From contig JAHJTE010000001.1 of NCBI GenBank assembly GCA_018830005.1, positions 709,624-773,623 of the forward strand: a stretch of 64,000 nucleotides of DNA, in the 5' to 3' direction. This document shows, piece after piece, positions 21,067 to 60,831 of this stretch. How positions within the stretch are numbered: position 1 is the first letter of the stretch; every line of letters begins with the position of its first letter. The position numbers and the translations under genes were made by a program. The notes beneath the pieces were generated by a model that saw only the letters and a program-made list of their open reading frames with translations, was not told where the DNA came from and did not search any database. The DNA comes from Candidatus Omnitrophota bacterium. GTDB lineage: Bacteria > Omnitrophota > Gorgyraeia > JAHJTE01.

Positions 21067-21510
21067 ATGAGCGCATTTAAAAAAGTAATGGCAAAACAAT
21101 TAGGGGAGCTTCTGATTGAACGTGGAGTTATCGGGGCTAAACATCTTGAGAAGGCGCTTGAAGTTCAGAAGGAAAAAGGCGGTCTTATCGGGGAAATCCT
21201 TGTAGAATTAGGTTTTGCAAAGGAAGAGGATATAGCTCATGCATTAACTGCCCAGTACGGGTTTCCATACTTACCTTTAAAAAATTATGATATAGATTTA
21301 GAAATTGTCCGGATTATCCCTAAGAATGTAGCTATCCAGTACTGTCTTATTCCCATAGATAAGATCGGCACCTCGCTAACAGTTGCTATGTCTAATCCAT
21401 TAAATGTTCAGGCGATCGAGGATATAGAACTACTTACCAAGTGCAAGGTTCAGACTTTTGTAAGCACCCCTTCAGATATTAGAGAGACAATAAAGAAATA
21501 TTATAAATAA
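21067..21510 (+). CDS. stand-alone MshEN/T2SSE_N domain protein, a putative c-di-GMP receptor
   Basis: Two tandem copies of the MshEN-type motif, KQLGELLIERGVIGAKHLEKALEVQ and LIGEILVELGFAKEEDIAHALTAQ. No ATPase domain. Confidence 0.75.
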   Translation: MSAFKKVMAKQLGELLIERGVIGAKHLEKALEVQKEKGGLIGEILVELGFAKEEDIAHALTAQYGFPYLPLKNYDIDLEIVRIIPKNVAIQYCLIPIDKIGTSLTVAMSNPLNVQAIEDIELLTKCKVQTFVSTPSDIRETIKKYYK

Positions 21511-21558
21511 AACCCAATATTCCTCATCTTTGGTATTTATTTTTAATTTTTAATAACT

Positions 21559-23274: not shown

Positions 23275-23280
23275 ATTAAA

Positions 23281-24981: not shown

Positions 24982-25001
24982 ATTTTTAAAGGGGAGATAA
25001 A

Positions 25002-26201
25002 ATGACAGTTTTCAAATATACGGCGAAAAATAGATCAGGTAAAAAGATCTCAGGCATGCTAGAAGCTGATAATCAGAATCTGGCTATTGAGACTTTGCGT
25101 AAGAAAGAATTAATACCTATTAGCCTATCGGAAGAGAAGGCAAAACGGCGTGTTAGTGGGCGCAAGGTTAAATTGGATGATCTTGTTATTTTTTCTCGTC
25201 AGCTGGCTACGATGGTTGATTCAGGAATTCCCCTTGTTCAGGCATTAAGCATTCTAGGAGAGCAGGTGCAAAAGGAAAATTTCCGGCAGGTGATTTTAAG
25301 GATACGTCAAGATATCGAAGAAGGTGCAGGTTTTTGTGATGCCCTGGCTAAGCACACAGCAGTATTTTCTCCGCTTTACATTAATATGGTAAAGGCAGGA
25401 GAAGCAAGTGGTTTATTGAATGAGATATTAGATAGGTTAGCTAATTATTTAGAAAAGGCAAGCGCCTTGCAGAGAAAGGTAAAATCTTCCTTGACCTATC
25501 CAATCGTGGTAATTGCCATGGCCTTAATTATTACTATCTTTTTGCTGGTTAAGGTTGTTCCAACATTTAGAGGTATATTTGATATGCTTGGCGGTACCTT
25601 GCCTTTACCTACGCGGATCTTGATTGGTTTCAGCGATATGTTGCGGCATTCATTCTTGTATATTGTAATTTTCTTAGTTGGTGTAGTATTCCTGCTTAAG
25701 AAATGGTCAAAGACTCCAAGGGGGAGAAGGACCATTGATTATTACCTACTCAAGCTTCCTGTCTTTGGCCCACTTTTAAAGAAAGTAGCAATAGCTAAGT
25801 TCAGCCGGACACTTTCTACGTTAGTAAGAAGCGGCGTTCCTATCTTAGGTTCCTTAGAGATTGTAGGCAAGACAGCAGGCAATAAAATAGTTGAAGAGGC
25901 ATTAGATAACGCGCGCAAGTCTATTAAAGAAGGTGAGCCTATTTCCGGCCCCTTGAGTGAAAGCGATGCGTTTCCGCCTATGGTAGTAAGGATGATTGCT
26001 GTAGGCGAACAGACAGGCGAGTTGGAGAAGATGTTAAGCAAGATCGCTGACTTTTATGATGAGCAGGTTGATGCCACAGTAAGTTCTATGACAAGTTTAA
26101 TTGAGCCAATGGTCATCGCCTTTTTAGGTGTTATTATCGGTGGCATTGTAGTCTCATTATTCTTGCCCATATTTAAGATTACGGAACTATTGGGAAGATG
26201 A
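25002..26201 (+). CDS. pilC: type IV pilus platform protein PilC (GspF family)
   Basis: Two GspF repeats and three TM helices. It follows the pilB genes. Confidence 0.9.
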   Translation: MTVFKYTAKNRSGKKISGMLEADNQNLAIETLRKKELIPISLSEEKAKRRVSGRKVKLDDLVIFSRQLATMVDSGIPLVQALSILGEQVQKENFRQVILRIRQDIEEGAGFCDALAKHTAVFSPLYINMVKAGEASGLLNEILDRLANYLEKASALQRKVKSSLTYPIVVIAMALIITIFLLVKVVPTFRGIFDMLGGTLPLPTRILIGFSDMLRHSFLYIVIFLVGVVFLLKKWSKTPRGRRTIDYYLLKLPVFGPLLKKVAIAKFSRTLSTLVRSGVPILGSLEIVGKTAGNKIVEEALDNARKSIKEGEPISGPLSESDAFPPMVVRMIAVGEQTGELEKMLSKIADFYDEQVDATVSSMTSLIEPMVIAFLGVIIGGIVVSLFLPIFKITELLGR

Positions 26202-26275
26202 GGTGTTTTTAGATCAGGGCTACAGGAATAATTTTTTAACCTAACTCTTTCATTATTAATTTGTTAAGAAAATTC

Positions 26276-26305
26276 TTGACTTTGTAATAGTTAGGTGTCT
26301 ATAAT
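26276..26305 (+). promoter_or_regulatory. sigma70-type promoter TTGACT-N18-TATAAT for the riboswitch-pilA transcript
   Basis: TTGACT at 26276-26281, TATAAT at 26300-26305, about 50 nt upstream of the GEMM element. Confidence 0.5.
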
Positions 26306-26352
26306 ATATTTTACAGGGCCTAATTTTTATGGTATACTTGAGGTAACATTGA

Positions 26353-26468
26353 AAAAGGCAAACCAGTCGTAAGGCTGGGACGCAAAGCTAAAGGGCCTTG
26401 TGAAAGGGTAGCCAGTTACCAATGAGAATAACCTATTTCAGGTGACTGGAATAGGTTTTATTTTTTTG
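26353..26468 (+). ncRNA. c-di-GMP-I (GEMM) riboswitch-like leader with a terminator expression platform (copy 1)
   Basis: GGCAAACC-AGTC-GTAA(GNRA)-GGCTGG-GACGCAAAGC-TAAAGGGCC matches the GEMM core (Vc2: GGCAAACCAUUCGAAAGAGUGGGACGCAAAGCC). It is followed by hairpin CCTATT...AATAGG plus a T-run at 26430-26468. Confidence 0.8.
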
Positions 26469-26578
26469 GCCGGGACTAATAAATGTCAAGCCAGAGGAAA
26501 ACGAAATTATTATTATTTTTCTAGAAACTGGGTTGATATGATAAGTTCAATCAAGGCCAAGAGAGGAGGTTGTTAATT

Positions 26579-27007
26579 ATGAGAAACAGATCAGGTTTTA
26601 CCTTGGTTGAAATCATGATTGTTGTTGCTATTATTGCTTTATTGGCAGCCATAGCAATACCTAACCTGTTGCGTGCTCGTCTCAATGCTAACGAGTCTGC
26701 ATCGATTGCTGCTATGCAGACGCTTTCTACTGCAGCCCAGAGTTATCGTTCAGCTAATCCTAGTTATCCTACTAACTTAGCTGCTTTGTCTAACGCAACT
26801 CCACCTTATATTGATTCTGTATTAGCAGGTGGAACAAAATCAGGCTATGCATTTATTTTGACAGGTACCACAAATGCATTTACTGCAACTGCTGCTCCTA
26901 GCACTGTGGGCACTACGGGTAATAGATATTTCTTTGTTGATGAAAGTGGTGTTGTCAGGTATGCTAGTGGCGCTGCAGCTACATCTGCAAGCAGCCCAAT
27001 TGAATAA
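26579..27007 (+). CDS. pilA: type IV major pilin (PilA-like), leader MRNRSG followed by FTLVEIM
   Basis: GGAGG RBS 9 nt upstream of the ATG at 26579 (the track start at 26570 is a TTG). Class III signal peptide G|FTLVEIMIVVAIIALLAAIAIPNL, 142 aa, Ser/Thr-rich C-terminal tail. Confidence 0.85.
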   Translation: MRNRSGFTLVEIMIVVAIIALLAAIAIPNLLRARLNANESASIAAMQTLSTAAQSYRSANPSYPTNLAALSNATPPYIDSVLAGGTKSGYAFILTGTTNAFTATAAPSTVGTTGNRYFFVDESGVVRYASGAAATSASSPIE

Positions 27008-27035
27008 GGATTCAACTTAAGGATTTACGAGAAAA

Positions 27036-27066
27036 GGCGCTTCTTTTTAAGAGGCGCCTTTTTTCT
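27036..27066 (+). terminator. intrinsic terminator after pilA
   Basis: GGCGCTTCT-ttta-AGAGGCGCC hairpin followed by TTTTTTCT. Confidence 0.65.
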
Positions 27067-27086
27067 AACTAGATATCTTTAAAGGA

Positions 27087-28856
27087 ATGAAAAGATCACA
27101 ACAAATTATACTTATTATCCTTGTCGGTTTATTGTTTTATTTTAATAGTCTTTTTAATGGGCTTGTTTGGGATGATGAGTTTTTAATCAAGGACAACCCT
27201 TATATCAGAAGCATTCCGACTGCTTTTTCTTACGCCTTTTCTAATGATCTATTCCCGGGAGAGCTACTATTTAAGCGGACTAATTATTATCGGCCCCTGC
27301 AGACACTAAGTTACTCTCTAGATTTTTTTATCTGGAAAGATACGCCCTTTGGTTTTCATCTCGCTAATTTAATCCTGCATATTATTAATGCCCTTTTAAT
27401 ATATTTAATTATTTCCTGTCTTTATAATCTGCCTTTGGTTTCTTTTGTTTGTGCCTTATTCTTTGTAGCCCATCCTATTCATCATGAGGCAGTGAGCTAT
27501 ATCTCTGGCCGTGCAGATTTATTGGCAGCATTTTTTATCTTGAGCTCTTTTTATTGCTTCCTTAAATATAGACTCGAGAATATAGCTGTGCGGCGCAATT
27601 ATTTCCTTGTTTTATCATTTATTTGTTTCTTTTTAGCACTTCTTTCTAAGGAGTATGCACTTATCCTGCCTTTCCTATTTTTATCCTTTGATTTTTCTTT
27701 TCAAAAATTAAATAGAAAAAATCTAGGCCAATACGTTTTCTTCTTACCCCTGATATTCCTCTTTATCATGTTGCGACTTTCTGCTTTAGGATTGGATAAT
27801 TCATTGCTGGGCGGCAGATATGCACATTTACTTTGGCAGGAATTGCCGATTCGTTTTTTTGGTTTTATAAAAAGCATACCGCTTTACTTAGGTATTTTAA
27901 TTTTTCCGGTTGATTTGCATATGCGCAGAGCCTTTCCCAGACCTGCAGGCCTTTTCGATCCTTTAGTATGGATTGGTATTTTTATTTTGCTCAGTTGTTA
28001 CTTCATTTTTTATAAAAGGAGAAAACAGGAGCCGCTTTATTTATTTTTGTTTCTTTGGTTTTTGATTCCTGTAGTTTCTCAATCACAGCTAACGCTTTCC
28101 GGATTTGGCTTTGCCGAGCACTTTTTATACCTTGCCTCAATGGGCGTCTTCTTTGCTTTTGCAAAGGTTTTTGTGGGCCTTTTTCTTAAATTTAAAGCAA
28201 GGGCGCAAAAACAGAGATTTATCGTTACTATACTTTTAATCTTACTTAGTTTTTATGGCAGCTTGACGAGTGTCCATAATCTTAACTGGAAGGATAGTCT
28301 GACATTCTATAAGTGGACGCTGAAGTTTTCACCCGAGAGCATTAAGTTGCGCATAAATCTAGCCAGAGAGTATATTGCCCTAGGTAGGGATGATCTGGCC
28401 TTAGTTGAATTCTTACGTGCTAAAAAGTTATTAGAGCAAGTGGAGGTATCTAAATATAAAGATAAACCAATTTTAGATTGGACTCTGAATGAGGCGATAG
28501 TAGTCGGCTATTACAATGTGGCTGTGCTTCATGCCAGCCAGAAAGATTATACAAGGGCGGAGCAGGAATATCGGCTGTCCCTTGCGATTAAGCCAAATTT
28601 TAATAAGGCACGTAATAATCTAGCTGCCTTATTGACCAAGCTAGGCAGAGATAAAGAGGCGATAGAGCAATTGTCGCTTGTTTTGAGTTCTGATCCAGAA
28701 GATTTAAAGGCATATTATAATCTGGGCGCAATCTTAGCGAATCTAGGCGAAGATGAAAAGGCAAGGCAGGTCTGGCAAGATGGCTTAAAGATAGATCCGG
28801 ATGATGCCAAGATTGGCGATGCGCTTGCGAGGCTCCTGGAAGAGAAGAAGAGATGA
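27087..28856 (+). CDS. PMT/TMTC-like GT-C glycosyltransferase domain (DUF1736-like, NGLVWDDEF motif) fused to a C-terminal TPR array
   Basis: About 11 TM helices and an acidic DD(E/F) motif in the first periplasmic loop, as in protein O-mannosyltransferases. C-terminal TPR repeats (YYNVAVLHASQKDYTRAEQEYRLSLAIKPN...). Confidence 0.65.
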   Translation: MKRSQQIILIILVGLLFYFNSLFNGLVWDDEFLIKDNPYIRSIPTAFSYAFSNDLFPGELLFKRTNYYRPLQTLSYSLDFFIWKDTPFGFHLANLILHIINALLIYLIISCLYNLPLVSFVCALFFVAHPIHHEAVSYISGRADLLAAFFILSSFYCFLKYRLENIAVRRNYFLVLSFICFFLALLSKEYALILPFLFLSFDFSFQKLNRKNLGQYVFFLPLIFLFIMLRLSALGLDNSLLGGRYAHLLWQELPIRFFGFIKSIPLYLGILIFPVDLHMRRAFPRPAGLFDPLVWIGIFILLSCYFIFYKRRKQEPLYLFLFLWFLIPVVSQSQLTLSGFGFAEHFLYLASMGVFFAFAKVFVGLFLKFKARAQKQRFIVTILLILLSFYGSLTSVHNLNWKDSLTFYKWTLKFSPESIKLRINLAREYIALGRDDLALVEFLRAKKLLEQVEVSKYKDKPILDWTLNEAIVVGYYNVAVLHASQKDYTRAEQEYRLSLAIKPNFNKARNNLAALLTKLGRDKEAIEQLSLVLSSDPEDLKAYYNLGAILANLGEDEKARQVWQDGLKIDPDDAKIGDALARLLEEKKR

Positions 28857-36874: not shown

Positions 36875-38729
36875 AAAATTAGCAATTTCTATAAGTATTT
36901 TCTTTTTCTTATTTTTGATATTACAAAATACTTCAGGTCCTGAGTCATTAGTTATCGCAGAGGAATTAGAGCTGGAGGATTTATCGCAACTCTTTGAGGA
37001 AGAGATTGATGTAGAAATTTTTGGCCTTGAGGATGAGGTTTCTTCTGAGATTATGGCTGAAGAGCTTAATGAAGAGGAATTAAAGGCGGTAGAGGCTGAG
37101 TTTGAAGAGGCTGAAGAAATCTTTGGCCTAGGTCAAGAAGAGGAGGCCTTGGATATCCCAGAAGAGGTTGCAGCGGAAATTTTGGCAGAAGAGCTCCCTA
37201 TTGTTACAGAATCTGAGTTGTCGTCTGAATTAGACCAGCTTGAGCCGGCAGGAAAGAAGCTGGCCGAAGAGGTTACTGAGGTGCAAGAGGGGAAGACGCA
37301 AGAGGAGGAGTTACCGGTTACCAAGGTATCCCTTGATTTTAAAGAGGCAGATATTAGAAATGTGTTAAGAATCCTTTCTTATAAAAGTGGAGTTAATATT
37401 GTTGCAAGCCCTGAAGTAACCGGCTTAGTTACTATAAGACTTACTGATGTTCCTTGGGATAAGGCATTAGATGTGGTGCTTGATACTTATGGTTTCGGAC
37501 ATGAACGCAAGGAAAACATTATTACGGTTTATCCTATGGAAATGCTTACTGCAAGAAAAAGCCAAGAGCAGGCGTTAGCGGCAGTTCAGCCTACAGTAAC
37601 TAAAGTTATAAAACTAAAGTTTATTGATGCTACTGATATGAAGAAGGCGCTTGATCCACAGCTATCTCCGCGCGGCAGGGTTACTGTTTTGGAGGCAACC
37701 GGTCAAGCTGGATGGGAATTTGGCGGCTCAGAGTTAGGTAAAAGAGCGCGCATAGGTGAAAAAACGAGCAGATCGAAAATGCTCATTATCTCTGATATCC
37801 CTCCGGTATTAGAAAGGCTAGAGGAGGTTATTGCTGAATTAGATGTGCGGCCAGAGCAGGTGTTAATTGAAGTGAGACTTTTGGAAGTAAATCGCGATAA
37901 ATTATCTGACTTAGGTATGGAGTGGGGTACAGGCTCTGATGGTACAGGCTTTATCGAGACAAGCGGTAAGGGTTTAGACGGAAGCTCAGAGACTCAACTT
38001 AGCGTCCAAGGCGAAACGCTTCAAGTATCGCCTTCGACGTTTTCTTCTAAGTCTGGTTTTTCTGGAATTACACCGTTTAATGCTGGCCTTACTGCTACAT
38101 TCCAAAAGATTACCGGCAGTCAGTTTCAGGCTATATTACATGCTGTAGCAGAGGACGTAGAAGTAAATACACTTTCAGCACCACGCATCTTGACATTGAG
38201 TGATCAGGAGGCGACTATCCTAATAGGAAGCAAATATCCTATTCTTACCTCTGATGTAAGTACAGAGGCAGGGGCGACAGTTACCACAACACTTGATTAC
38301 TATGAGGATATCGGAATCCAGCTTAATGTTGTGCCTCAGGTTAATGACGATGGCTATATTAATCTAATCGTACATCCTGCGGTAACTTCTATTTCAAGCT
38401 ACATAGGGGACAATTCCTATCCTGTAATAATAACCCGTGAGGCAGAGACACAGCTTTTGATTAAAGATGGCGAGACAATAGTCATTGGTGGACTGCTTAA
38501 GGATGTAAAGGGAGAGTCAGAAATTGGCATTCCATTTTTAAGTAAGATCCCTATTCTAGGTTTTTTATTTAGGCGCACGGTAGTAGATATAGAAAAGATC
38601 GATCTTTTAATATTTATAACTGCAAGAGTAGTTAAATCCGAAGGGGACCTGATAACGTTTAAACAAAGCGTAGAAACTCCGGTCAGAAATTTAATACCAG
38701 CAGAGCCCGTAATTAAAGAAGAAGAGTAA
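36858..38729 (+). CDS. pilQ: type IV pilus secretin PilQ with an acidic Glu-rich N-terminal extension
   Basis: GTG start after an AAGGAGGG RBS. AMIN/N0-N1-like domains and a C-terminal secretin signature (IVIGGLLKD...EIGIPFLSKIPILGFLF). Confidence 0.9.
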   Translation: MQVKIKKLAISISIFFFLFLILQNTSGPESLVIAEELELEDLSQLFEEEIDVEIFGLEDEVSSEIMAEELNEEELKAVEAEFEEAEEIFGLGQEEEALDIPEEVAAEILAEELPIVTESELSSELDQLEPAGKKLAEEVTEVQEGKTQEEELPVTKVSLDFKEADIRNVLRILSYKSGVNIVASPEVTGLVTIRLTDVPWDKALDVVLDTYGFGHERKENIITVYPMEMLTARKSQEQALAAVQPTVTKVIKLKFIDATDMKKALDPQLSPRGRVTVLEATGQAGWEFGGSELGKRARIGEKTSRSKMLIISDIPPVLERLEEVIAELDVRPEQVLIEVRLLEVNRDKLSDLGMEWGTGSDGTGFIETSGKGLDGSSETQLSVQGETLQVSPSTFSSKSGFSGITPFNAGLTATFQKITGSQFQAILHAVAEDVEVNTLSAPRILTLSDQEATILIGSKYPILTSDVSTEAGATVTTTLDYYEDIGIQLNVVPQVNDDGYINLIVHPAVTSISSYIGDNSYPVIITREAETQLLIKDGETIVIGGLLKDVKGESEIGIPFLSKIPILGFLFRRTVVDIEKIDLLIFITARVVKSEGDLITFKQSVETPVRNLIPAEPVIKEEE

Positions 38730-50499: not shown

Positions 50500-52227
50500 T
50501 TATTTAGTAGGAGGCCTTTCTGGTATGAGGAAAACACACACCTTGTTTCTACCTGTCTCTTTGGCTTTATAAAGCGCCTTGTCAGCGAAAGAGATTAATT
50601 CTTTAGGGGTCTGGGCATCTGTCTCAGTTAAGGATGCGATTCCTATACTGATTGTTACCTTTAGAGGCTGGTTCCCTTTATAAGGGAAGTTAAATTCTTC
50701 AATAGATTTTCTTAGACGTTCAGCGTAGATACTGGCGCCTTTTGCAGTTGTATTAGGCAAAATACAGCAGAATTCTTCACCGCCGTAACGGGCCACGACA
50801 TCCACTCTGCGGCTGCTCTCCTGGATGATCCTAGCAACATTCTTTAAGATTACATTTCCTTCTTCATGCCCGTAAGTGTCGTTTACTTTTTTAAAGTGGT
50901 CAACATCCATTATCAAAAATGTAAGTTGAGTATTTTCCTCTTTTGCGTGTGCAAATTCAGAATCAAGTTTAAGTATTAGATAGCGATGTACAAAGAGTCC
51001 TGTGAGCCCATCAGTAATCGCCATAGTTTTTAAGATTGCTGCCTCAACCAATAAGCGCATATATTTGTATGTCTCCGTGCCCAGATACAAAAATGCGGCA
51101 ATAAATATCGGACCAAAGTAGTCAAAGGATAAGTTTTGATAGGAAAGCAGAAAGGAAACAAGCATAAGCCCTAAAAGCTCTAGCGCCAAAAGAAGGGAAC
51201 CTTTAAGGATTGAGAGTTTATAGGTGAATATTGCGGTGCAAATTGCAACTATTAGAATCAACAGGATTGAGAAAATCTCAGGCGTCTCTTTTAGAAAATT
51301 TCCTGATAAGTACATTAGGATTTCATTGGCATTGATTACTACCCCTGGCATCAGGCCCAGGGGGGTAGGGTAGACATCGTGAAAGATTTCAGCAGTCGTG
51401 CCGACGAGAATAATCTTTTTGTGGATACTTGCTTTACTAGCAGTTTTATTGATTATTTTATGAAAGGGGATGATTTCAAAGTCTTTATTTTTTGCCTGGT
51501 AATTAATCAATGCTGTGCCTTTTTCTGAAAGAGGAATGATTACTTGCTTTGTTGTTTTTGCCACATCTTTTAGATTGATAAGCATTCTGCGATTATTAAG
51601 TGAGACGTCGTTTTTAATATCGCTTTCGTGATAGCGCAAAAAGGTCTTTAGTCCGAAAGAGGTTTTTAGTATTCCCGGAAGGTCTTTTCTTGGAAACAGG
51701 AGGCGGCAATTACGCACGGTTAAATCTTTATCGCGTGTCTTGTTAACAAAGCCAAAGCCTAAGGCTGCTTTTTGCAAAGGCAGATAAGGTTCATTATAAC
51801 TTTTATCCGGGGCAATGTAACTTGCAAGAATTACATTGCCTGCATTTTTAATTGCCTCAGCCAGTGCCGAATCATCATCCTTATTATTGCTTTCTCCTGT
51901 AAATACCATATCCAGACTAATGATCTTTGGTCTGTATTCATTTAGGTTATCAATAAATTCACTCAAGAAACTTCGTGACCAGGGCCATTTTTTCTGCAAG
52001 ACCATGAATGATTCGTCATCAATAACAACAAGGCTGATCTCTTTTAATTCTTTGGGTTTAGGTTTTAACTGATAAGTAAGGCGATTAAACAAATCAGCAG
52101 TTTTTAACGAAAGGATATTTAAAAAAGTAATTTTATGGGAGGAAAAAGAATAAGCCAGGCTTATAATCATCGCCACACAGATTACCTTTATCAGATTCTT
52201 ATCCCAGGATATCTTTTTCTTTTTCAT
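50500..52227 (-). CDS. CHASE2 sensor-domain diguanylate cyclase (canonical GGEEF, RxxD I-site present)
   Basis: N-terminal periplasmic CHASE2-like region, three C-terminal TM helices, GGDEF domain with DVDHFKKVNDTYGHEEGN and RRVDVVARYGGEEF. Confidence 0.85.
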   Translation of the reverse strand: MKKKKISWDKNLIKVICVAMIISLAYSFSSHKITFLNILSLKTADLFNRLTYQLKPKPKELKEISLVVIDDESFMVLQKKWPWSRSFLSEFIDNLNEYRPKIISLDMVFTGESNNKDDDSALAEAIKNAGNVILASYIAPDKSYNEPYLPLQKAALGFGFVNKTRDKDLTVRNCRLLFPRKDLPGILKTSFGLKTFLRYHESDIKNDVSLNNRRMLINLKDVAKTTKQVIIPLSEKGTALINYQAKNKDFEIIPFHKIINKTASKASIHKKIILVGTTAEIFHDVYPTPLGLMPGVVINANEILMYLSGNFLKETPEIFSILLILIVAICTAIFTYKLSILKGSLLLALELLGLMLVSFLLSYQNLSFDYFGPIFIAAFLYLGTETYKYMRLLVEAAILKTMAITDGLTGLFVHRYLILKLDSEFAHAKEENTQLTFLIMDVDHFKKVNDTYGHEEGNVILKNVARIIQESSRRVDVVARYGGEEFCCILPNTTAKGASIYAERLRKSIEEFNFPYKGNQPLKVTISIGIASLTETDAQTPKELISFADKALYKAKETGRNKVCVFLIPERPPTK

Positions 52228-52616: not shown

Positions 52617-53282
52617 ATGAAAAGAAAAGGTTTTAGTTCATTAGAGTTAATAATTGGCTTAGCCCTTACGGCTATTATGGCTACTATGGGCATTGTTAAT
52701 TTCAGTAGCCAGGATGCGTTATTGCTTGATGCTGCAGCCCAAAAAGTTGTCTCTGACTTAAATTACGCCAGGATGTTGGCTATTGACATGGGAGAGCAAA
52801 GCGAATATACTTATTCTGGAGGCGAAGCAGGCGAGGAGGCAGGCAACTTTGTGGTTATGGATTTTAGTGATGAGGCTTCAACTCTTCCTAGTTCTTATCG
52901 CGCTGTTCCTGCGTTACAGCTGCCTGCAGAAACTGGAGATCCTGTTGGCACAAGAATTAGTGTGTTATATGAACCGGTAGTGAGAAATATTACAGAAAAA
53001 GTTGAACTTTTTTTTCCTAGTGAAGATGATTTTAAACAAGTCAAGATACAATCTGTAGACTTTGGCGATGACGGATCAGGCGGCGCTTATAACGCTGTTC
53101 GTTTTGAAGGACCTACAGGCAGACCAATGAACGGTACCTGGGTTATGGGGAATGATGAAAATGCTTATTTTTCAACTGATACAGGATTGGGAAGTTCAGG
53201 TGGCATTATTGTTGTAGAGTATAATGGCAGAACTAAGATAGTCAGGATTTCTCGTATCGGAAGGATTACTATTGAAAATTAA
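52617..53282 (+). CDS. prepilin-type pilin-like protein, KG|FSSLELIIGLALT
   Basis: ATG with a GAGG RBS. Class III signal peptide. 221 aa with a Gly-rich C-terminal domain. Confidence 0.7.
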   Translation: MKRKGFSSLELIIGLALTAIMATMGIVNFSSQDALLLDAAAQKVVSDLNYARMLAIDMGEQSEYTYSGGEAGEEAGNFVVMDFSDEASTLPSSYRAVPALQLPAETGDPVGTRISVLYEPVVRNITEKVELFFPSEDDFKQVKIQSVDFGDDGSGGAYNAVRFEGPTGRPMNGTWVMGNDENAYFSTDTGLGSSGGIIVVEYNGRTKIVRISRIGRITIEN

Positions 53283-53790
53283 TAATATTAGTAACAGATT
53301 GCATAAACTGTTAATTTTAAAAGCTCCATCAGGTCTATCACTGATGGAGCTTTTGGTTGTTATTGTCATTATCGCAGTATCCTTATTGCCTCTCTATGCC
53401 TTATTCAATCAAGCAATACTAGCCCATGTAACTGCTCAAGTTATGACTACTTCTTCTTATCTTGGCCAGTATGCTATGGAAAGTATGTTGTCCAAGGATT
53501 TTTTTGAGCTTCTTAACGAACTTGATAGTGATGTGCATTCTTATGGCAACGATACTGTCTTTGCTGGCCCTTTTTCTAAGTATAAATACACAATAGAGGT
53601 TGATGCTATTGATCCTGAATACGGTGGCGCTGGAGGGGATTTAGCTGATATAAGTGCGAGAGTTAGTTCAGCTGATGGCGTTGCAAGCGGCAGTTATCTG
53701 CGTATCTATGTAAGGATAACAAATGATATTCAGCCCGGTAAGCAATTAGAACTCTACAGTATAGTCACACCAGCAGGAGACGGGTATTGA
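53272..53790 (+). CDS. prepilin-like pseudopilin, ...APSG|LSLMELLVVIVIIAV
   Basis: The track start is a TTG overlapping the upstream gene, so the true start is uncertain. Methylation-type motif with L at +1. Confidence 0.55.
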   Translation: MKINNISNRLHKLLILKAPSGLSLMELLVVIVIIAVSLLPLYALFNQAILAHVTAQVMTTSSYLGQYAMESMLSKDFFELLNELDSDVHSYGNDTVFAGPFSKYKYTIEVDAIDPEYGGAGGDLADISARVSSADGVASGSYLRIYVRITNDIQPGKQLELYSIVTPAGDGY

Positions 53791-53791
53791 T

Positions 53792-54331
53792 ATGAAAACA
53801 AAAGGGTTTACTCTTATAGAAATGGTTATTAGCATTGCGGTTTTAGCTATTATTGCTGTAGTGCTTACCCCTATTGTATTACAATCAATAGATTTATTTT
53901 TGATGTCCAGAACTCAAGAGGTACTTGCTAATGAATCAAGATTTGCCATGAATTGGATGTCAGAAGAAATAAAAACAGAATGCGCAAGTTTCAATACTAT
54001 TGACGGTATGAGTTTGACATTTACAACCTGTGCAACGTGTGATCCTCCCAATACACCGATTTCCTATGATTGGGATAGTGCTAATAATAGATTGATTCGA
54101 ACAGTTGGCGGAGGAGACGACAACGACGATATTTTAGCTGAAAGAGTAAGTTTTGCAGAGTTTCGGGTTTTTGATACAGTTGATTTAGATATGTCGGCAG
54201 GACAGACTAACGTGAGTGATTTCAGTACGTTTGATGTAAGATTTGTGCAGATAAGATTAGCGATAACAGATGATACTGGAACAAAGGCCTATAGCCTTGT
54301 AACTCGGATTATGCCGCGTTATCTGCAATAG
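53792..54331 (+). CDS. prepilin-type minor pilin, KG|FTLIEMVISIAVLAII
   Basis: ATG start, AGGAGA RBS, canonical GFTLIEM motif. 179 aa. Confidence 0.7.
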   Translation: MKTKGFTLIEMVISIAVLAIIAVVLTPIVLQSIDLFLMSRTQEVLANESRFAMNWMSEEIKTECASFNTIDGMSLTFTTCATCDPPNTPISYDWDSANNRLIRTVGGGDDNDDILAERVSFAEFRVFDTVDLDMSAGQTNVSDFSTFDVRFVQIRLAITDDTGTKAYSLVTRIMPRYLQ

Positions 54332-54334
54332 CCA

Positions 54335-56917
54335 GTGTTGATGATGCTAAGTTTTAAATTTAACAGAAAATCCTTTGCCTTAATTCTGGCGCTGTGGATT
54401 CTGGTTGCCTTTAGCGTTATTGCCATGACAGCGATGTATGTGGTAAGCCGCAAACTTGATGAATATGTAAACCAGATAAATTCGCTTAAAGGTCAGTATT
54501 TAGCAGAATCAGCCAAGAATTACTTTTTAGAATATGTCACACCTTTTGATAATGATTTGATGGGCAACCCCCAGATAAACAAGGAATTAGGAGGAGAAAA
54601 CTTTCAATTTAGTATAAATTATGACACTGACCCTGCTCCTACAGCACGAACTGCAAGTATGACCCTTACCGGAAGCTCTCCTGGAGTTAACCGCTTTATA
54701 AGCTTGAATATAATTGAAGATGAAAATCAGAATGATGAAATAATTAAAAAAGTTAAGAAATACAATGCGGTTATTAAGAATCAGAACCCGATTACCTTAG
54801 AGGATGTGTGTATCACCAGAGGTTGTACTGAGTGGTATACTGCGGCTGATTGTGTTGACAACTGTCCTTCAACCAGTGGCGCTACTCCCGACGGTTGTTG
54901 TGAAGTATGTTATAGCTCGAGTAACTGCACTGATGCCTGTCCTTCAACCAGTGGTGGTAGTCCGAGTGGTTGTTGTGAGGGCTGTTATAGCTCAAGCAAC
55001 TGCACTGATGCCTGTCCTTCAACCAACTACTGTTGCGAAGGATGCTACAACTCAAGCAACTGCACTGACTCCTGCCCTTCAACTAGTTCCTGTTGCGAAG
55101 GATGCTACAACTCAAGCAACTGCACTGACTCCTGCCCTTCAACTAGTTCCTGTTGCGAAGGATGCTACAACTCAAGCAACTGCACTGATACCTGTCCTTC
55201 TACTAGTTCCTGTTGTGAAGGCTGTTATAGCTCAAGCAACTGCACTGACTCCTGCCCTTCAACTAGTTCCTGTTGCGAGGCATGTTATAGCTCAAGCAAC
55301 TGCACTGACTCCTGCCCTTCAACTAGTTCCTGTTGTGAAGGCTGTTATAGTTCTTGTTTTAGTGCTGTTACTAATAATTATTATAATGGGGATTGCAGCC
55401 AAGACACTGCTGCTAGTTGCTGTCTTTCTTCTGTGCCTTCAGGCTATGAATACTGTTGTGAGGCAGTTTCCTGTCAATGTCAGACAGCAGCATATCCGTG
55501 TAAAACTGTGTGTTGTCCAGAGTCAGACTATCCAACTTGGAGTACGACTTGTGATGCTAGTTATAGCTGCGATTCAAATTGGGAGCAGTCTTGCATTGAG
55601 ACGGGATGGTGTGCTTGCTCATTAGAAAGAGAGACTGGTTTTATTCTAGCAGGCGGGGAACCACAATGTCCGTGTTGTCTAGAATATGGGGATTGGACTT
55701 GTAAGACTATAAAGTTAGCATGTCCAGGCGGATGGAAGACCTCCTGCAGTAACTACGAATGTAGTAATTATGATTGTAGTGATTACGAATGTAGTAATTA
55801 TGAGTGTAGTAATTATGAATGTAGTAATTATGAGTGCAGAAACTACGACTGCAAAAACTATAAATGTAAGACAGAAGATTGCACAGCATGGCGTTCGCCA
55901 ACATTTCATAGCACTACCTACTTTGACGTATCAAGCGTCCAAGTAACTACAAACTATTCTCCCACTGCGAATCAGGCAATATGGGGAGAGTCCACTGACG
56001 CTAAGAACCTCTATGTAAATGGTAGCCTAGACCTTGATAATATCAGTGATATTACAAAATATGGTGTCTGGGGTGATGCCTATGCAAAGGATGCAATAAC
56101 TGATACTATTGGTGCAATACATGGTAGTGAGTTTGAGAATTGTAACTCAGTCGCAAATCCTGATGAATGTAGCTGGTCAGTTACAAAACCCGCAATAGAT
56201 ACAGCTTATTATGATAGGTTATTTGTTAAGGCGCAGGCTATGACTGCAGGCGATTTGCCAGATATAACCACTACCTCTTCAGGCTCCTCTGATCGACAAC
56301 TAAAAGGAAAGAATATTTTTGTAAATGGCAATGTTACTATTAGTACTGATAGCGATAATCCCTTGGAAGGCCCAGGGAATATTATTGCTATTGGAACAAT
56401 TACAATTAGTAATAGTGCTCATATTGAAGAGAATATTGGCCTTATCAGTAAAACCGCAGTTAATATTGGTCAGTCAGCGCGTGTTGGTAGGGCCAAGACC
56501 GGGGATACAAGTGGTGAATTTATTCAAGGAAAAGGCGTATTTATCTATGTTGCTAGAGATGCAGGCACAACTGTAGTAGATTTAGGATATTATTCCAAGA
56601 CAAAGGCCTATATCTTAGTAGTGCCGCATACATCTGGTACCACAGAAAATACAATAAAGGTTAGTGACTACCATGATGATGCCTCTCCTGATGATAATCG
56701 TTATGCCCGGCTTCAGGGTTTAATCTATACTGAAGGTCTTCATGATGAGACTGGTGAGGTTTACGGCTATATTTATACAGACAATCTAACCAATGACCAG
56801 ATAGTAATGTTGCGGCTGCTTGAGGATGATGTTTCTGGAACTCCTGTTGAATCACAGCGGCCCATAAAAATCAGAGGCCTTTATAACATTGGCATAGCCA
56901 ACCTTACTTATAAATAG
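54335..56917 (+). CDS. 860-aa PilX-N-like pilus protein with a hyper-Cys-rich tandem-repeat stalk and a beta-helix-like C-terminal domain
   Basis: GTG start. N-terminus FALILALWILVAFSVIAMTAMYVVSRK (PilX_N-like). About 8 copies of CCEGCYNSSNCTDSCPSTSS and about 8 copies of CSNYE. The C-terminus (NIFVNGNVTISTDSD...GNIIAIGTITISNS) resembles the 500-aa PilX-like protein. Confidence 0.7.
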   Translation: MLMMLSFKFNRKSFALILALWILVAFSVIAMTAMYVVSRKLDEYVNQINSLKGQYLAESAKNYFLEYVTPFDNDLMGNPQINKELGGENFQFSINYDTDPAPTARTASMTLTGSSPGVNRFISLNIIEDENQNDEIIKKVKKYNAVIKNQNPITLEDVCITRGCTEWYTAADCVDNCPSTSGATPDGCCEVCYSSSNCTDACPSTSGGSPSGCCEGCYSSSNCTDACPSTNYCCEGCYNSSNCTDSCPSTSSCCEGCYNSSNCTDSCPSTSSCCEGCYNSSNCTDTCPSTSSCCEGCYSSSNCTDSCPSTSSCCEACYSSSNCTDSCPSTSSCCEGCYSSCFSAVTNNYYNGDCSQDTAASCCLSSVPSGYEYCCEAVSCQCQTAAYPCKTVCCPESDYPTWSTTCDASYSCDSNWEQSCIETGWCACSLERETGFILAGGEPQCPCCLEYGDWTCKTIKLACPGGWKTSCSNYECSNYDCSDYECSNYECSNYECSNYECRNYDCKNYKCKTEDCTAWRSPTFHSTTYFDVSSVQVTTNYSPTANQAIWGESTDAKNLYVNGSLDLDNISDITKYGVWGDAYAKDAITDTIGAIHGSEFENCNSVANPDECSWSVTKPAIDTAYYDRLFVKAQAMTAGDLPDITTTSSGSSDRQLKGKNIFVNGNVTISTDSDNPLEGPGNIIAIGTITISNSAHIEENIGLISKTAVNIGQSARVGRAKTGDTSGEFIQGKGVFIYVARDAGTTVVDLGYYSKTKAYILVVPHTSGTTENTIKVSDYHDDASPDDNRYARLQGLIYTEGLHDETGEVYGYIYTDNLTNDQIVMLRLLEDDVSGTPVESQRPIKIRGLYNIGIANLTYK
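54858..55355 (+). repeat. in-frame 60-bp tandem repeat array (about 8 units; the two 5' units are 75 bp)
   Basis: Units 55021-55080, 55081-55140 and 55141-55200 are near-identical (ctgttgcgaaggatgctacaactcaagcaactgcactgactcctgcccttcaactagttc). The period coincides with the 60-column lines of the sequence listing. Confidence 0.9.
55745..55865 (+). repeat. in-frame 15-bp tandem repeat (tgtagtaattatgaa, about 8 units) encoding (CSNYE)n
   Basis: Read directly. Protein: CSNYECSNYDCSDYECSNYECSNYECSNYECRNYDCKNYKC. Confidence 0.85.
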
Positions 56918-57343: not shown

Positions 57344-57362
57344 TGTGAGGATAAGACTAAAG

Positions 57363-57632
57363 ATGGACAAGAAAGGTTTTACACTAGTTGAGATTATGAT
57401 TGTAGTCGGGGTTCTTGCGCTGCTAATGGCTATTTCATTGCCGATATTATCAAGAATGCGCCAAAATGCAAATGAGGCAAAAACCCAGGCTGAACTTAAT
57501 TCACTGTATAAGGCAGTTAACATGTATTATGCCTATAATGGCAGATACCCTAGCGAGTTGAGCGAATTAAGTGATTATATTACAATAGCTAACATTGATA
57601 ATAAATACGAGTTGAATTCGGATCTACCTTAA
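57363..57632 (+). CDS. short type IV pilin (89 aa), MDKKG|FTLVEIMIVVGVLALLMAISLP
   Basis: ATG at 57363 with an AGGA RBS. The track start at 57345 is a GTG inside the terminator T-tract. Shares the paralogous pilin motif with the pilin at 26579. Confidence 0.8.
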   Translation: MDKKGFTLVEIMIVVGVLALLMAISLPILSRMRQNANEAKTQAELNSLYKAVNMYYAYNGRYPSELSELSDYITIANIDNKYELNSDLP

Positions 57633-57652
57633 GAGGACTTGGTGAAGAGAAG

Positions 57653-58264
57653 ATGATTAAGAATTGTTTAGTCTCCATATTTAGTTTGATCTTGCTGCTA
57701 GGCTTATCCTTAAGTTCTGCAGAGGCAGCTTCTAATAATACCTGGTTGATTAAATCAAAGGCCACTGGTTCAGAACAGGTATTTGCTGTGTGGATGGATG
57801 GTCGGTTGAGTTCTGGCACACCTGTCTCAGAGGACGGGATTATTAGTAGTGTAACCTTTAGTGGCAGTCAATATCTTTCTGCCAAGGAATGGGTTACAAA
57901 TGAGCAGACTGGTGCAGTCCGCACTTATTGGAGCAATAAACCTATTGTCTATGGAATGGAATCAGAAGGAGGTACATACAGGATTGTCTTATCGGCAAAG
58001 AATTATGTTGGTAGCACTGGTTGGAGCCTGCCAAAGGGATATAAGAATTTTAATGTCGTTGTTAAAGTAGCTAATAAGAAGGTTGGTACAATTCTCCTAG
58101 AGGCAAGTGATACAGAGGTAAAGACAGGGTATCTGGTCCTAAATGATATCGAATCAGGCGTTCATCAGGTCAAACTAATCTGGAATAATGATAGCTACAA
58201 GCCAGCAAAGAAGTGGGATGCAAATATAGAAATCCAAAGTGTAGCATTTGAGAAGATTGAATAA
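57653..58264 (+). CDS. hypothetical secreted beta-rich protein
   Basis: Signal peptide LLLGLSLSSAEA|AS. 203 aa, no recognisable motif. Co-transcribed 20 nt after the short pilin. Confidence 0.45.
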   Translation: MIKNCLVSIFSLILLLGLSLSSAEAASNNTWLIKSKATGSEQVFAVWMDGRLSSGTPVSEDGIISSVTFSGSQYLSAKEWVTNEQTGAVRTYWSNKPIVYGMESEGGTYRIVLSAKNYVGSTGWSLPKGYKNFNVVVKVANKKVGTILLEASDTEVKTGYLVLNDIESGVHQVKLIWNNDSYKPAKKWDANIEIQSVAFEKIE

Positions 58265-58345
58265 GGTTTATTTGAGTGTACCCGCCCTTAGATATAACTT
58301 GCTGTATAGCAATGAGTTATGAAAATAATAATTATTGGCAGATTA

Positions 58346-58374
58346 TTGAAATAAGCCTTTATTTGTGTTATACT
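58346..58374 (+). promoter_or_regulatory. candidate promoter TTGAAA-N17-TATACT upstream of GEMM copy 5
   Basis: Read directly. Confidence 0.4.
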
Positions 58375-58399
58375 TTAGTTGACAATTAGTTAAGTACGA

Positions 58400-58530
58400 A
58401 AAGGGCAAACTATTCGAGAGAATAGGACGCAAAGCCAAGAGTCCTTAGCATCTTTAGATGTCAAGGATTGTCTGGTTACCGAAATTAAAAATGTGGACCT
58501 ATTCTTTTCGAAGAATAGGTTTTTTATTTA
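58400..58530 (+). ncRNA. c-di-GMP-I (GEMM) riboswitch-like leader with terminator (copy 5)
   Basis: GGCAAACTATTCGAGAGAATAGGACGCAAAGCC is almost a base-for-base match to the Vc2 aptamer core, with a GAGA GNRA loop. Terminator GACCTATTC...GAATAGG plus T-run. Confidence 0.85.
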
Positions 58531-58606
58531 TATAAAGAAAATTGCTTGAAGCTTATGTTTTATTGCGGTATACTATTAAGCGGTATATTACTAGGAGGAT
58601 CTAAAA

Positions 58607-60316
58607 ATGAACAGGAATCTTAGAAAGGGATTTAGTAGTATCGAATTTATCGGTGTGCTTACGGTAATTGTTGTAATTTTGGCATTTTCTATCCCTAAAA
58701 TTGTATCTACAAAAATAGCAGCAAACGAAACTGCCGCAATCAGCGATCTCTACAAATTGGGATCAGCGTTTGAAGCGTATCGCTCAATATACAGTACTTA
58801 CCCAAGAGATTTTTCCGACCTTAACAACCTTGCTCCGGATTTAATCGGGCAGGAGTTTGTCTCAGTCTCTGGGGCAGAATACGCTAAAGGCGGATATGCC
58901 TTTAAGATTGATTCTGTTGATACTGATATTGTGCCTACATATGCCTTTAGAATCTATGCTGAGCCAAAGGTTTCTTCGTTCAGGGTTACTGCTGGTCTTG
59001 TTAGCGGTATTCCTACTGGTAGACGCGTATTTAAGTATGGTGTGAATAAGGCAGACGCTAGTGTTGGTTATTATGCTAAGAATCCTGGAACGAGTCAGCC
59101 TGAGGCAATCTCCGACTGGATTCCTCTTACAGGAGTTGAAGGACGGGGTTTTATGGGCACATCAACAACTACACCACCTCCACCACCTCCACCACCAACT
59201 TCACCTCCTACTACAACAACTACAACAACTACTACTACAACGTCCGATACTGCACTTACATTTACAACGCAGACTATTACAACTACTATAGCCACTATAA
59301 CCACTACAACAACTACAACTAGCACAACGACTACTACACTAGGGCTAATCGGAACTACTACCACTGTACAGACAACAACAACCACAGATGTAACAGAAAC
59401 ACTTCCTGGTCTTCTTAGTTGTCCTTATGTTCATGTTTGGGATGGAAGTCAGTTTATAAAAGACAATGATATTATTCCGGGTGGAAATACTCATGAATAT
59501 ACTGATTACTATAAATTAACCAAACAGGTTAGTGCGGATAAAAATGGTGACTTATTATTTAAGATTATTGAACCTTTGGATGAAAAATCTTATCTTGATA
59601 AGGCACATCTAATAGAGGTTAGACATCCTAAGTTTGTTAATATTGCTCCTTCGCCAGAGGGTGAGATGTTCACTTATAAACAAAGGGCCTTAAGGCGACC
59701 AAGAAAGGCCATTGATACAAATGGTGAAGATATTCTAAGTCTTGTTTCTAGCAAGGGCAAAGGTGATTATCATGGTCTTCCTGGAGATTTTGTTACATTT
59801 GATTTTGGTAAGATTAAAAAAGCACCTAATGGCATGCGACTTATCTTAAGCTCTGACTTAGAATATGCCTATGCTGCTAAAAGCACGAAGTCGCTGCATA
59901 TTGAGGTGTTTCTTGAGGATAGCTATTGGCAGGAGATCTCTATAGTTCATCCTCATGAGGCCTGGGATATCTGGGCAATAGATCTAGCTTCATTTAAAGA
60001 CAAGATTGCTGGTGAGCTTAGGGTAAAGATCAACTGGAAAAATGAACACAAGCTAGATTTTGCACTTTTAGATATGTCAGCCCAGGTTCCGATTAAGATT
60101 AGAGACCTAGCCTTGGTTGAGGCAAAACACAATAAGAGATTCTTCAGTAATGTAATGTCTCTACTTAAGAAGTCTGATAATAGATATGCCAAGATGGTTA
60201 AAGGCGATGAGATATCTCTTAGATTTAGAGGTTCTAGCAAGGGCTTAGAGCCTAAAGAGGTGTTAAGTTATATCTTTGTCAGCGAGGGCTTTTATAAGCC
60301 GCTCATTAAGAAATGA
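58607..60316 (+). CDS. pilin-domain fusion protein: prepilin N-terminus + pilin globular head + Pro/Thr-rich linker + roughly 330-aa C-terminal domain of unknown function
   Basis: KG|FSSIEFIGVLTVIVVILAFSIP. A paralogous pilin motif (AISDLYKLGSAFEAYRSIYSTYP), then a P8 and poly-T linker, then a novel domain starting CPYVHVWDGSQ. Confidence 0.7.
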   Translation: MNRNLRKGFSSIEFIGVLTVIVVILAFSIPKIVSTKIAANETAAISDLYKLGSAFEAYRSIYSTYPRDFSDLNNLAPDLIGQEFVSVSGAEYAKGGYAFKIDSVDTDIVPTYAFRIYAEPKVSSFRVTAGLVSGIPTGRRVFKYGVNKADASVGYYAKNPGTSQPEAISDWIPLTGVEGRGFMGTSTTTPPPPPPPPTSPPTTTTTTTTTTTSDTALTFTTQTITTTIATITTTTTTTSTTTTTLGLIGTTTTVQTTTTTDVTETLPGLLSCPYVHVWDGSQFIKDNDIIPGGNTHEYTDYYKLTKQVSADKNGDLLFKIIEPLDEKSYLDKAHLIEVRHPKFVNIAPSPEGEMFTYKQRALRRPRKAIDTNGEDILSLVSSKGKGDYHGLPGDFVTFDFGKIKKAPNGMRLILSSDLEYAYAAKSTKSLHIEVFLEDSYWQEISIVHPHEAWDIWAIDLASFKDKIAGELRVKINWKNEHKLDFALLDMSAQVPIKIRDLALVEAKHNKRFFSNVMSLLKKSDNRYAKMVKGDEISLRFRGSSKGLEPKEVLSYIFVSEGFYKPLIKK

Positions 60317-60336
60317 TAGGCTAGATATAGGCGAAT

Positions 60337-60831
60337 ATGTTTAGAAACAATAGTCCCGTTAGAGAGCCTAACAAAGCAAAGAGGACTCTGACGGGACTTA
60401 CTTTATTTGAGGCCCTATTAGTTACGGCGGTAATCGGGATTGTTCTTGTCTTGAGTATTCCACACCTATCCAGGATGAAAATCCAGGCCAATGAGACTGA
60501 TGCAATAGCCTCTTTGGGCAAGATAGCCGCAGCCATGGAGGTTTACCGTATCCTCTATAAAACATATCCAGACAATTTAAATAAGCTCTCAATAGTCAAT
60601 CCTACTCTTTCAGCAGGACCATTGTTGAGTAGTGGCTCAAAAAGTGGCTATAATTACCGGATTGAAATTGAAGATGAGAGTTTTGATCCGAATAGCTTTA
60701 CTGTGATTGCAGAACCAAAACAGCCGCTTAAAACTGGTGAACATAGGTTTAAAGTTGACCAGAATGGAATCATATATTCTACAGACTCTCAGACCTCAAT
60801 AGTCTGGATGCCTCTGGGCGGTGCAATCTAA
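60337..60831 (+). CDS. prepilin-type pilin paralogue (long leader, ...LTG|LTLFEALLVTAVIGIVLVL)
   Basis: Shares the IASLGKIAAAMEVYRILYKTYP motif with the other paralogues. 164 aa. Confidence 0.65.
   Translation: MFRNNSPVREPNKAKRTLTGLTLFEALLVTAVIGIVLVLSIPHLSRMKIQANETDAIASLGKIAAAMEVYRILYKTYPDNLNKLSIVNPTLSAGPLLSSGSKSGYNYRIEIEDESFDPNSFTVIAEPKQPLKTGEHRFKVDQNGIIYSTDSQTSIVWMPLGGAI

Follow-up and report, generated by a model that had tools for sequence, protein, structure and literature searches.

Genes for surface proteins that carry in-frame variable-number tandem repeats (VNTRs) are well known, among them those for the alpha C protein of group B Streptococcus, the staphylococcal Aap and Sdr proteins, the Vlp and Vsa proteins of Mycoplasma and the ALS proteins of Candida, and the instability of tandem repeats is an established basis for a mechanism of unequal exchange or slippage. 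Cys-rich proteins that offer a second comparison are the variant-specific surface proteins (VSPs) of Giardia and the immobilisation antigens of ciliates, which are variable surface proteins with CXXC motifs, and the antifreeze protein of Tenebrio, which is a disulfide-laddered solenoid. In this work we analyse a gene for an 858-residue Cys-rich protein, with two tandem arrays inside its reading frame, on a stretch of 64,000 nucleotides from a Candidatus Omnitrophota bacterium (GenBank assembly GCA_018830005.1, contig JAHJTE010000001.1, positions 709,624 to 773,623 of the forward strand); this whole stretch is called the window, and coordinates refer to it. Bacteria of the uncultured phylum Omnitrophota are mostly ultra-small and are believed to be host-dependent and to attach via type IV pili (PMC10066038), the type IVa pilus (T4aP) being near-universal in the phylum, with a proposed role in host attachment (PMC10066038). 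A described protein with which ours can be compared is ComZ of Thermus, a GspK-like pilin with a β-solenoid inserted before its last strand, whose location at the pilus tip has been argued on steric grounds (PMC6561018).

Our reading, to which we give a probability of roughly 0.6, is that the two arrays are in-frame minisatellites in a gene whose product is a large, Cys-rich PilX/GspK/ComZ-type minor pilin, and that whole units are gained and lost between near-clonal populations. As a phenomenon this is familiar, an in-frame VNTR within the gene of a surface protein; what is unusual is the setting, a Cys-rich insertion in the probable PilX/ComZ-type minor pilin from an uncultured phylum. The gene and its parts are the following:

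54341–56917, forward strand: gene for the 858-residue Cys-rich protein (NCBI MBU2541060.1, KJ593_04065), as in the list of open reading frames (ORFs), with an alternative GTG start at 54335
54341–54850, forward strand: N-terminal pilin-like domain, with a hydrophobic α1 helix (KSFALILALWILVAFSV...), the motif YLAESAKNYFLEY and then short β strands, kept in all homologues
54863–55012, forward strand: two 75-bp (25-residue) units, starting at 54863 and 54938, forming the 5′ edge of the array, where the sequence has diverged
55013–55372, forward strand: six 60-bp units (20 residues, 5 Cys), starting at 55013, 55073, 55133, 55193, 55253 and 55313
55030–55188, forward strand: 159-nt tract of exact 60-nt periodicity, in which 99 nt recur exactly, at 55030 and 55090
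55373–55744, forward strand: non-repetitive Cys-rich segment separating the arrays
55745–55864, forward strand: 15-bp array of eight CSNYE-type pentapeptide units, after which come two further degenerate units
55865–56917, forward strand: C-terminal all-β, solenoid-like domain of ~350 residues, common to a family of PilX_N/DUF7305 proteins 380–570 residues long

The protein is an exact match to MBU2541060.1 (P0001), which is annotated as hypothetical in a Candidatus Omnitrophica metagenome-assembled genome (MAG), on an 848-kb contig. It contains 75 Cys, in agreement with a previous annotation made from the letters of the window (hereafter the sequence-only reading), which had called the gene Cys-rich; 73 of them fall between residues 155 and 515, in an insertion of ~350 residues that is 20% Cys and 20% Ser and holds both arrays.

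Tandem Repeats Finder (TRF) reported a 75-bp array at 54862–55025 (2.2 copies, 87% matches), which runs into a 60-bp array at 54971–55350 (6.3 copies, 90% matches, score 555), and a 15/30-bp array at 55748–55848, with no other tandem repeats scoring at least 60 in the whole window. The 60-bp array described in the sequence-only reading is therefore real, and its register can be refined to two 75-bp units followed by six 60-bp units, which together span 54863–55372; in codon register each of these long units encodes CPSTSSCCEGCYxSSNCTDx, with five Cys, and the 3′ half of the last one (55313) is degenerate. The same reading had placed the 60-bp and 15-bp repeats in frame, and indeed the 75-, 60- and 15-bp units are all multiples of 3 and all lie in frame of the ORF 54341–56917. 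Its statement that three named 60-bp units differ at only 2–4 positions holds for neighbours (4 differences between the first and the second, 3 between the second and the third) but not for the first and the third, which differ at 7. In codon register, the closest pair consists of the units at 55073 and 55133, which are 2 nt apart, and central neighbouring units differ at 2–7 nt per 60. The central long units are more alike than those at the edges, which is the usual signature of ongoing unequal exchange, and the homogenisation of the units at the DNA level, synonymous sites included, exceeds what the protein sequence requires. Because of the 99-nt exact repeat at 55030 and 55090, the tract 55030–55188 is perfectly 60-periodic, and an exact repeat of this length cannot have arisen by chance in 64 kb. 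An overlapping ORF of 273 residues (54804–55625) and the antisense ORFs found in the arrays were rejected as by-products of stop-free repeats.

The evidence for gain and loss of units comes from the comparison of assemblies, all of whose alleles are consensus metagenome assemblies. The protein cluster formed at 90% identity has five members from five sources, and four of these are near full length (858, 823, 778 and 862 residues) and 100% identical outside the arrays, their length differences being fully accounted for by the loss of two or four 20-residue units and the gain of one 5-residue unit. If each allele is written as the number of long (20- or 25-residue) units followed by the number of 5-residue units, the four alleles are:

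8/9: the window (8 long units, 9 pentapeptide units)
6/10: P0004, from GCA_043815545.1 (6 long units, 10 pentapeptide units)
4/9: P0006, from ENA ERZ27247117, a MEGAHIT k141 contig (4 long units, 9 pentapeptide units)
8/10: P0007, from GEM (8 long units, 10 pentapeptide units)

The GEM protein is thus an independent one that has, like the window, 8 long units. In these combinations the pentapeptide state does not follow the state of the 60-bp array, and the reading frame is intact in all alleles for which DNA or a full protein sequence is available. The fifth member, P0005 (JGI/IMG), consists of the C-terminal 225 residues, starting at the internal Met634, and is encoded on a 198.5-kb contig, which suggests that in the JGI assembly the gene is interrupted or mis-assembled upstream.

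At the DNA level, the window was compared with the near-identical loci of two other cluster members (L001 and L002) in a three-way MAFFT alignment of 19.66 kb, which supersedes BLAST mismatch counts, where misaligned repeats had led to an overstated divergence. The alignment contains four single-nucleotide polymorphisms (SNPs) and exactly three indels, and all three indels lie inside the two arrays; that is, the genomes are at least 99.98% identical over 19.66 kb and the arrays are the sole places where length changes. The SNPs are all in L001 (47011–47508), with none in L002; they sit in a ~500-bp patch of an acyltransferase gene, a clustering that suggests a short tract of recombination and not clock-like divergence. 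The indels are:

55030–55149, forward strand: 120-bp (two-unit) loss, absent from L001 and L002, where units 3 and 5 are joined in register into one chimeric unit
55202–55321, forward strand: second 120-bp (two-unit) loss, absent from L002 only, with its junction in a 29-nt stretch common to units 6 and 8
after 55804 (by alignment): 15-bp gain, one extra TGTAGTAATTATGAA unit in L001 and in the GEM protein P0007

The junctions of L001 and L002 in the 60-bp array are in-register chimeric units. As to the 15-bp difference, the near-identical core that holds it measures only 45–60 nt and lies between units that can be told apart, and by inspection of the unit sequences no 33-mer recurs in it; assembly error is unlikely here because ordinary reads span the core, and we regard this polymorphism as very probably real. 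For the 120-bp differences we see roughly even odds that they are real. The length variability proposed in the sequence-only reading is accordingly upheld in so far as copy number differs among near-identical assemblies (8, 6 or 4 long units; 9 or 10 pentapeptide units), while the caveat about assembly stays with it.

More distant relatives extend this picture over a longer time scale. The orthologue with 41% identity (L003) has homogenised arrays of its own (51 bp × 4 at 95% and 15 bp × 8.5), whereas the one with 51% identity (L004) has protein repeats that are diverged, with no array at the DNA level; taken together, this is what concerted evolution would produce, with the repeats turned over separately in each lineage, probably by unequal exchange.

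Whole units are most likely gained or lost by RecA-dependent unequal exchange or by replication slippage between neighbouring units, and this traffic would leave the central units with nearly the same DNA sequence even at synonymous sites. Near-clonal populations would then come to hold alleles that differ solely in the count of 20-residue (5-Cys) and 5-residue (1-Cys) modules. As a consequence, the Cys-rich module between the pilin-like and β-solenoid domains, which is probably exposed, would differ in size and Cys content from one allele to another. This is not an ON/OFF switch, because a unit length divisible by 3 leaves the reading frame intact, as it is in every allele. Such variation may have an adaptive value, for example altered binding to hosts or surfaces, or evasion of recognition.

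With regard to the protein itself, it is most likely a PilX/GspK/ComZ-type minor pilin located at the tip of a type IV pilus, with a Cys-rich insertion specific to a small clade, since its relatives carry PilX_N and DUF7305 domains, its C-terminal domain gives a solenoid-like AlphaFold2 (AF2) model and the family profile matches ComZ. The whole protein has counterparts in just two other clusters, at 51% and 41% identity and on Omnitrophota or MAG contigs; these are alike in architecture and different in repeat numbers and sequences. When 1.8 billion proteins were searched with a profile of the C-terminal ~350 residues, 54 representatives were obtained, which are 350–620 residues long and mostly Cys-poor (bar a few fragments and two long outliers); in the Cys-poor relatives the C-terminal domain comes directly after an N-terminal domain of ~170 residues. 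A Pfam scan of 48 of these relatives found DUF7305 (PF23981) in 12, PilX_N in 9 and a β-helical Bactofilin-like domain in 8 (a literature search for "DUF7305" returned no paper). The Cys content is 7–9% in the Cys-rich clade versus 0–3% in the other members, except P0027 and P0055, and the shorter relatives have small Cys clusters where the Cys-rich insertion sits. The two exceptions contain 26 Cys in 538 residues (P0027) and 61 Cys in 1017 residues (P0055, with ~100-residue repeats N-terminal to the solenoid); this PilX_N/DUF7305-type family may therefore have acquired Cys-rich elaborations repeatedly, and independently in these two.

The family profile also matches a second PilX_N protein encoded in the window over the N-terminal domain (96.4% probability, E=1e-9) and, when searched against the PDB (profile A4), it reaches ComZ (6QVI) with a whole-sequence E=1.4e-5, through three co-linear stretches each of which is weak or non-significant alone; the wider family thus appears to be weakly related to this Thermus tip pilin. 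The AF2 model of the C-terminal domain, built from the family alignment, has a predicted local distance difference test score (pLDDT) of 83.6 and a predicted template modelling score (pTM) of 0.86, and consists of a run of regular short strands, for which the top Foldseek matches, all non-significant, were ice-binding β-solenoids (including FfIBP), tailspikes and ComZ.

The Cys-rich segment matched no Pfam family even at E≤10 and no NCBIfam family, and a sequence search of the PDB with the profile of the Cys-rich clade (A1) gave no match; a protein search with the segment alone returned nothing, itself included, presumably due to composition filtering. For the CSNYE array we considered a pentapeptide-repeat (Rfr) fold and rejected it, as it is without Pfam support and the CQxFN units of the orthologue misfit the A(D/N)LXX consensus. 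It is conceivable, though quite unlikely in our judgement, that the Cys-rich part forms a solenoid laddered by disulfides or metal, to which a 60-bp unit (four pentapeptides) adds one coil and a 15-bp unit a quarter of a coil, so that the minisatellites would tune, one coil at a time, the length and thiol content of an undescribed Cys-rich module at the pilus tip; if true, this would be a fast-evolving organ for host or mineral-surface recognition in a host-dependent Omnitrophota bacterium.

Several results weigh against a variable pilus-tip minor pilin, and they concern both the protein and the variation. Neither the whole protein nor any of its three parts has a significant match in Pfam or NCBIfam, and its own match to PilX_N (PF14341), with E=4, is below threshold; the direct hhalign comparison of the protein, or of its clade, with the window's second PilX_N protein was likewise not significant. 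The full-length AF2 model (from a four-sequence alignment) is unusable, with a pLDDT of 35.5 overall and ~25–30 in the Cys-rich part, Foldseek found no significant match for the C-terminal model among PDB and viral structures, and it is from relatives that we infer the tip location and the surface exposure. As to the variation, there are four alleles in total, and neither a related-locus search nor a scan of JGI metagenome contigs for an exact 26-mer found any more (in genome contigs the scan yielded just the 41% orthologue). Both 120-bp differences are losses, which is the direction expected from collapse, and the loss common to L001 and L002 corresponds exactly to the loop of the three near-identical units, i.e. 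to the minimal path through a de Bruijn graph. Additionally, in the Logan (k=31) assembly of SRR6514730, the 115.5-kb contig L006 (SRR6514730_1396) ends inside unit 3 (L006 6268, equivalent to window ~55059), and the downstream contig of that assembly (L009) starts ~270 nt after the gene, which is fragmented there.

The points on assembly are what one would see if a single fixed allele of 8 or more long units existed, and the shorter alleles, perhaps the pentapeptide difference too, had been produced by collapse or mis-threading of short reads. The 99-nt exact repeat and the 159-nt periodic tract are longer than common k-mer sizes, and on the 198-kb JGI contig the gene call is just the 225-residue C-terminal fragment; the warning about collapse given in the sequence-only reading was, in view of the Logan contig that stops inside unit 3 and of the loop-skipping path of the shared 120-bp loss, an apt one. 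However, the extra 15-bp unit lies in a read-spanned core and is present in two independent sources (L001 and GEM P0007), and the second loss of L002 is joined, in a MEGAHIT k141 contig, via a mere 29 nt of identity, so that k-mers longer than ~30 nt across this junction would need to exist in the reads. Moreover, two independent assemblies agree on 8 units and the arrays of the 41% orthologue behave likewise over evolutionary time, and we consider a purely artefactual origin somewhat unlikely. A static structural repeat, meaning a repetitive Cys-rich domain with a recent one-off duplication and neither elevated mutability nor a role for length variation, would be in line with the many extracellular proteins that have internal repeats yet are not hypervariable, with the diverged repeats of the 51% orthologue and with the Pro/Thr-rich short repeats of a neighbouring 569-residue pilin, which are invariant in three assemblies. 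We find it very unlikely, given three indel events versus 0–4 SNPs per 19.66 kb between assemblies, central units that are more alike than edge units and an orthologue (41%) with an independent homogenised array of different unit length.

The sequence-only reading had gone further and called the gene a likely contingency locus. Taken in its classical sense, as a phase-variable gene in which changes in simple-sequence repeats reversibly turn the tip protein ON or OFF, this part of the proposal is barely tenable: the JGI protein that starts at Met634 could be a disrupted allele, but the units are of 15, 60 and 75 bp, the alleles with DNA or full protein sequence are all in frame, and TRF reported no mono- to tetranucleotide tract in the gene or just upstream of it. 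In-frame size variation is supported, and ON/OFF contingency switching is not.

The genomic surroundings fit a pilus component. The Cys-rich gene takes fourth place in a minor-pilin operon, whose first three genes span 52617–54331 on the forward strand, and the gene order is conserved in L001–L004; together with the pilin-like N-terminus, this operon makes plausible the surface location implied where the sequence-only reading drew a comparison with surface adhesins. The features of interest around the gene are:

52617 (start), forward strand: GspH/FimU-like minor (pseudo)pilin gene, with a prepilin N_methyl motif and a weak GspH/FimU match
53272 (start), forward strand: PilV-like minor (pseudo)pilin gene, with an N_methyl motif and a weak PilV match
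53792 (start), forward strand: GspJ/PilW-like minor (pseudo)pilin gene, with an N_methyl motif and a weak GspJ/PilW match
57345, forward strand: GspG-like pilin gene, downstream
57653, forward strand: gene for a 203-residue secreted protein, downstream
58607–60316, forward strand: gene for a 569-residue pilin, downstream
60337–60831, forward strand: gene for a 164-residue ComP_DUS-type pilin, downstream, above the Pfam gathering score (28.6 vs 27.3 bits)
21067–38729, forward strand: complete T4aP machinery (stand-alone MshEN protein, two tandem PilB-type ATPases, PilC, pilins, PilM, PilO and secretin)
32359–33861: second PilX_N protein, of 500 residues, with PilX_N and a weak DUF4900 match, in a separate minor-pilin set
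50500–52227, reverse strand: CHASE2-GGDEF diguanylate cyclase gene, divergent from the Cys-rich minor-pilin operon
19612–21057, forward strand: GAF-GGDEF protein gene, just upstream of the MshEN/ATPase genes

The downstream pilin group spans 57345–60831 (forward strand). ComP_DUS is the fold of a Neisseria DNA-uptake minor pilin and, with the weak kinship of the family to ComZ, it raises the possibility of a competence-type or DNA-uptake pilus as an alternative. The genome has two distinct minor-pilin sets, which could prime different filaments, and the position of the two GGDEF genes suggests control of the pilus by cyclic di-GMP (c-di-GMP). Each of the two PilB-type ATPases has an MshEN domain, of the c-di-GMP-binding type. 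The 569-residue pilin has a long Pro/Thr-rich low-complexity linker made of 3-, 9- and 12-bp repeats (59172–59321), which do not change among the three assemblies, unlike the Cys-rich arrays; the region corresponding to this linker in L003 has an 18-bp repeat (6648–6709).

A pilus-tip protein with an exposed Cys-rich module that changes length faster than SNPs accumulate in the rest of the genome would be a candidate for what determines the specificity of attachment, and the locus would serve as a natural strain-typing marker for Omnitrophota populations. In practical terms, this is a place at which MAGs from short reads, although of one organism, differ or are interrupted, and hence a copy number taken from a single assembly cannot be trusted without spanning reads.

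When the locus is set beside described systems, the in-frame VNTR surface genes share with it tandem units that are a multiple of 3 within an ORF and near-identical even at synonymous sites, whole-unit gain and loss between otherwise identical strains, and a product that is predicted to be exposed. It differs from them in its uncultured Omnitrophota host, in coding for a probable pilus minor pilin instead of a wall-anchored adhesin or a lipoprotein, and in the extreme Cys content of its units (5 Cys per 20 residues). The PilX/GspK tip (pseudo)pilins (PF14341) with DUF7305 are comparable in gene position (after GspH-, PilV- and GspJ-like genes), probably in N-terminal architecture and through the relatives that were found via the C-terminal domain and carry PilX_N (9/48) or DUF7305 (12/48), whereas our protein is below all Pfam thresholds and its Cys-rich insertion of ~350 residues is absent from the rest of the family.

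ComZ of Thermus thermophilus (6QVI; PMC6561018) is a large minor pilin of a minor-pilin locus, in which a hydrophobic N-terminal helix and an AxYxAEAG-type motif come before a big β-solenoid-type domain and a short C-terminal segment. The protein analysed here comes from a similar locus and would share this layout, with a solenoid that is predicted, the likeness being limited by weak sequence similarity and non-significant fold matches; ComZ is without a Cys-rich repeat insertion and without DNA tandem arrays, and it binds DNA. The high Cys content, the periodic CXXC units and the predicted exposure recall the Giardia VSPs, the ciliate antigens and the Tenebrio antifreeze protein, and a 20-residue period would fit one solenoid coil, but no homology is detectable and the Cys-rich part of our protein has a pLDDT <35. 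Unlike the Giardia and ciliate proteins, where variation comes from switching among gene copies, what varies in this Omnitrophota locus is the number of units within one gene.

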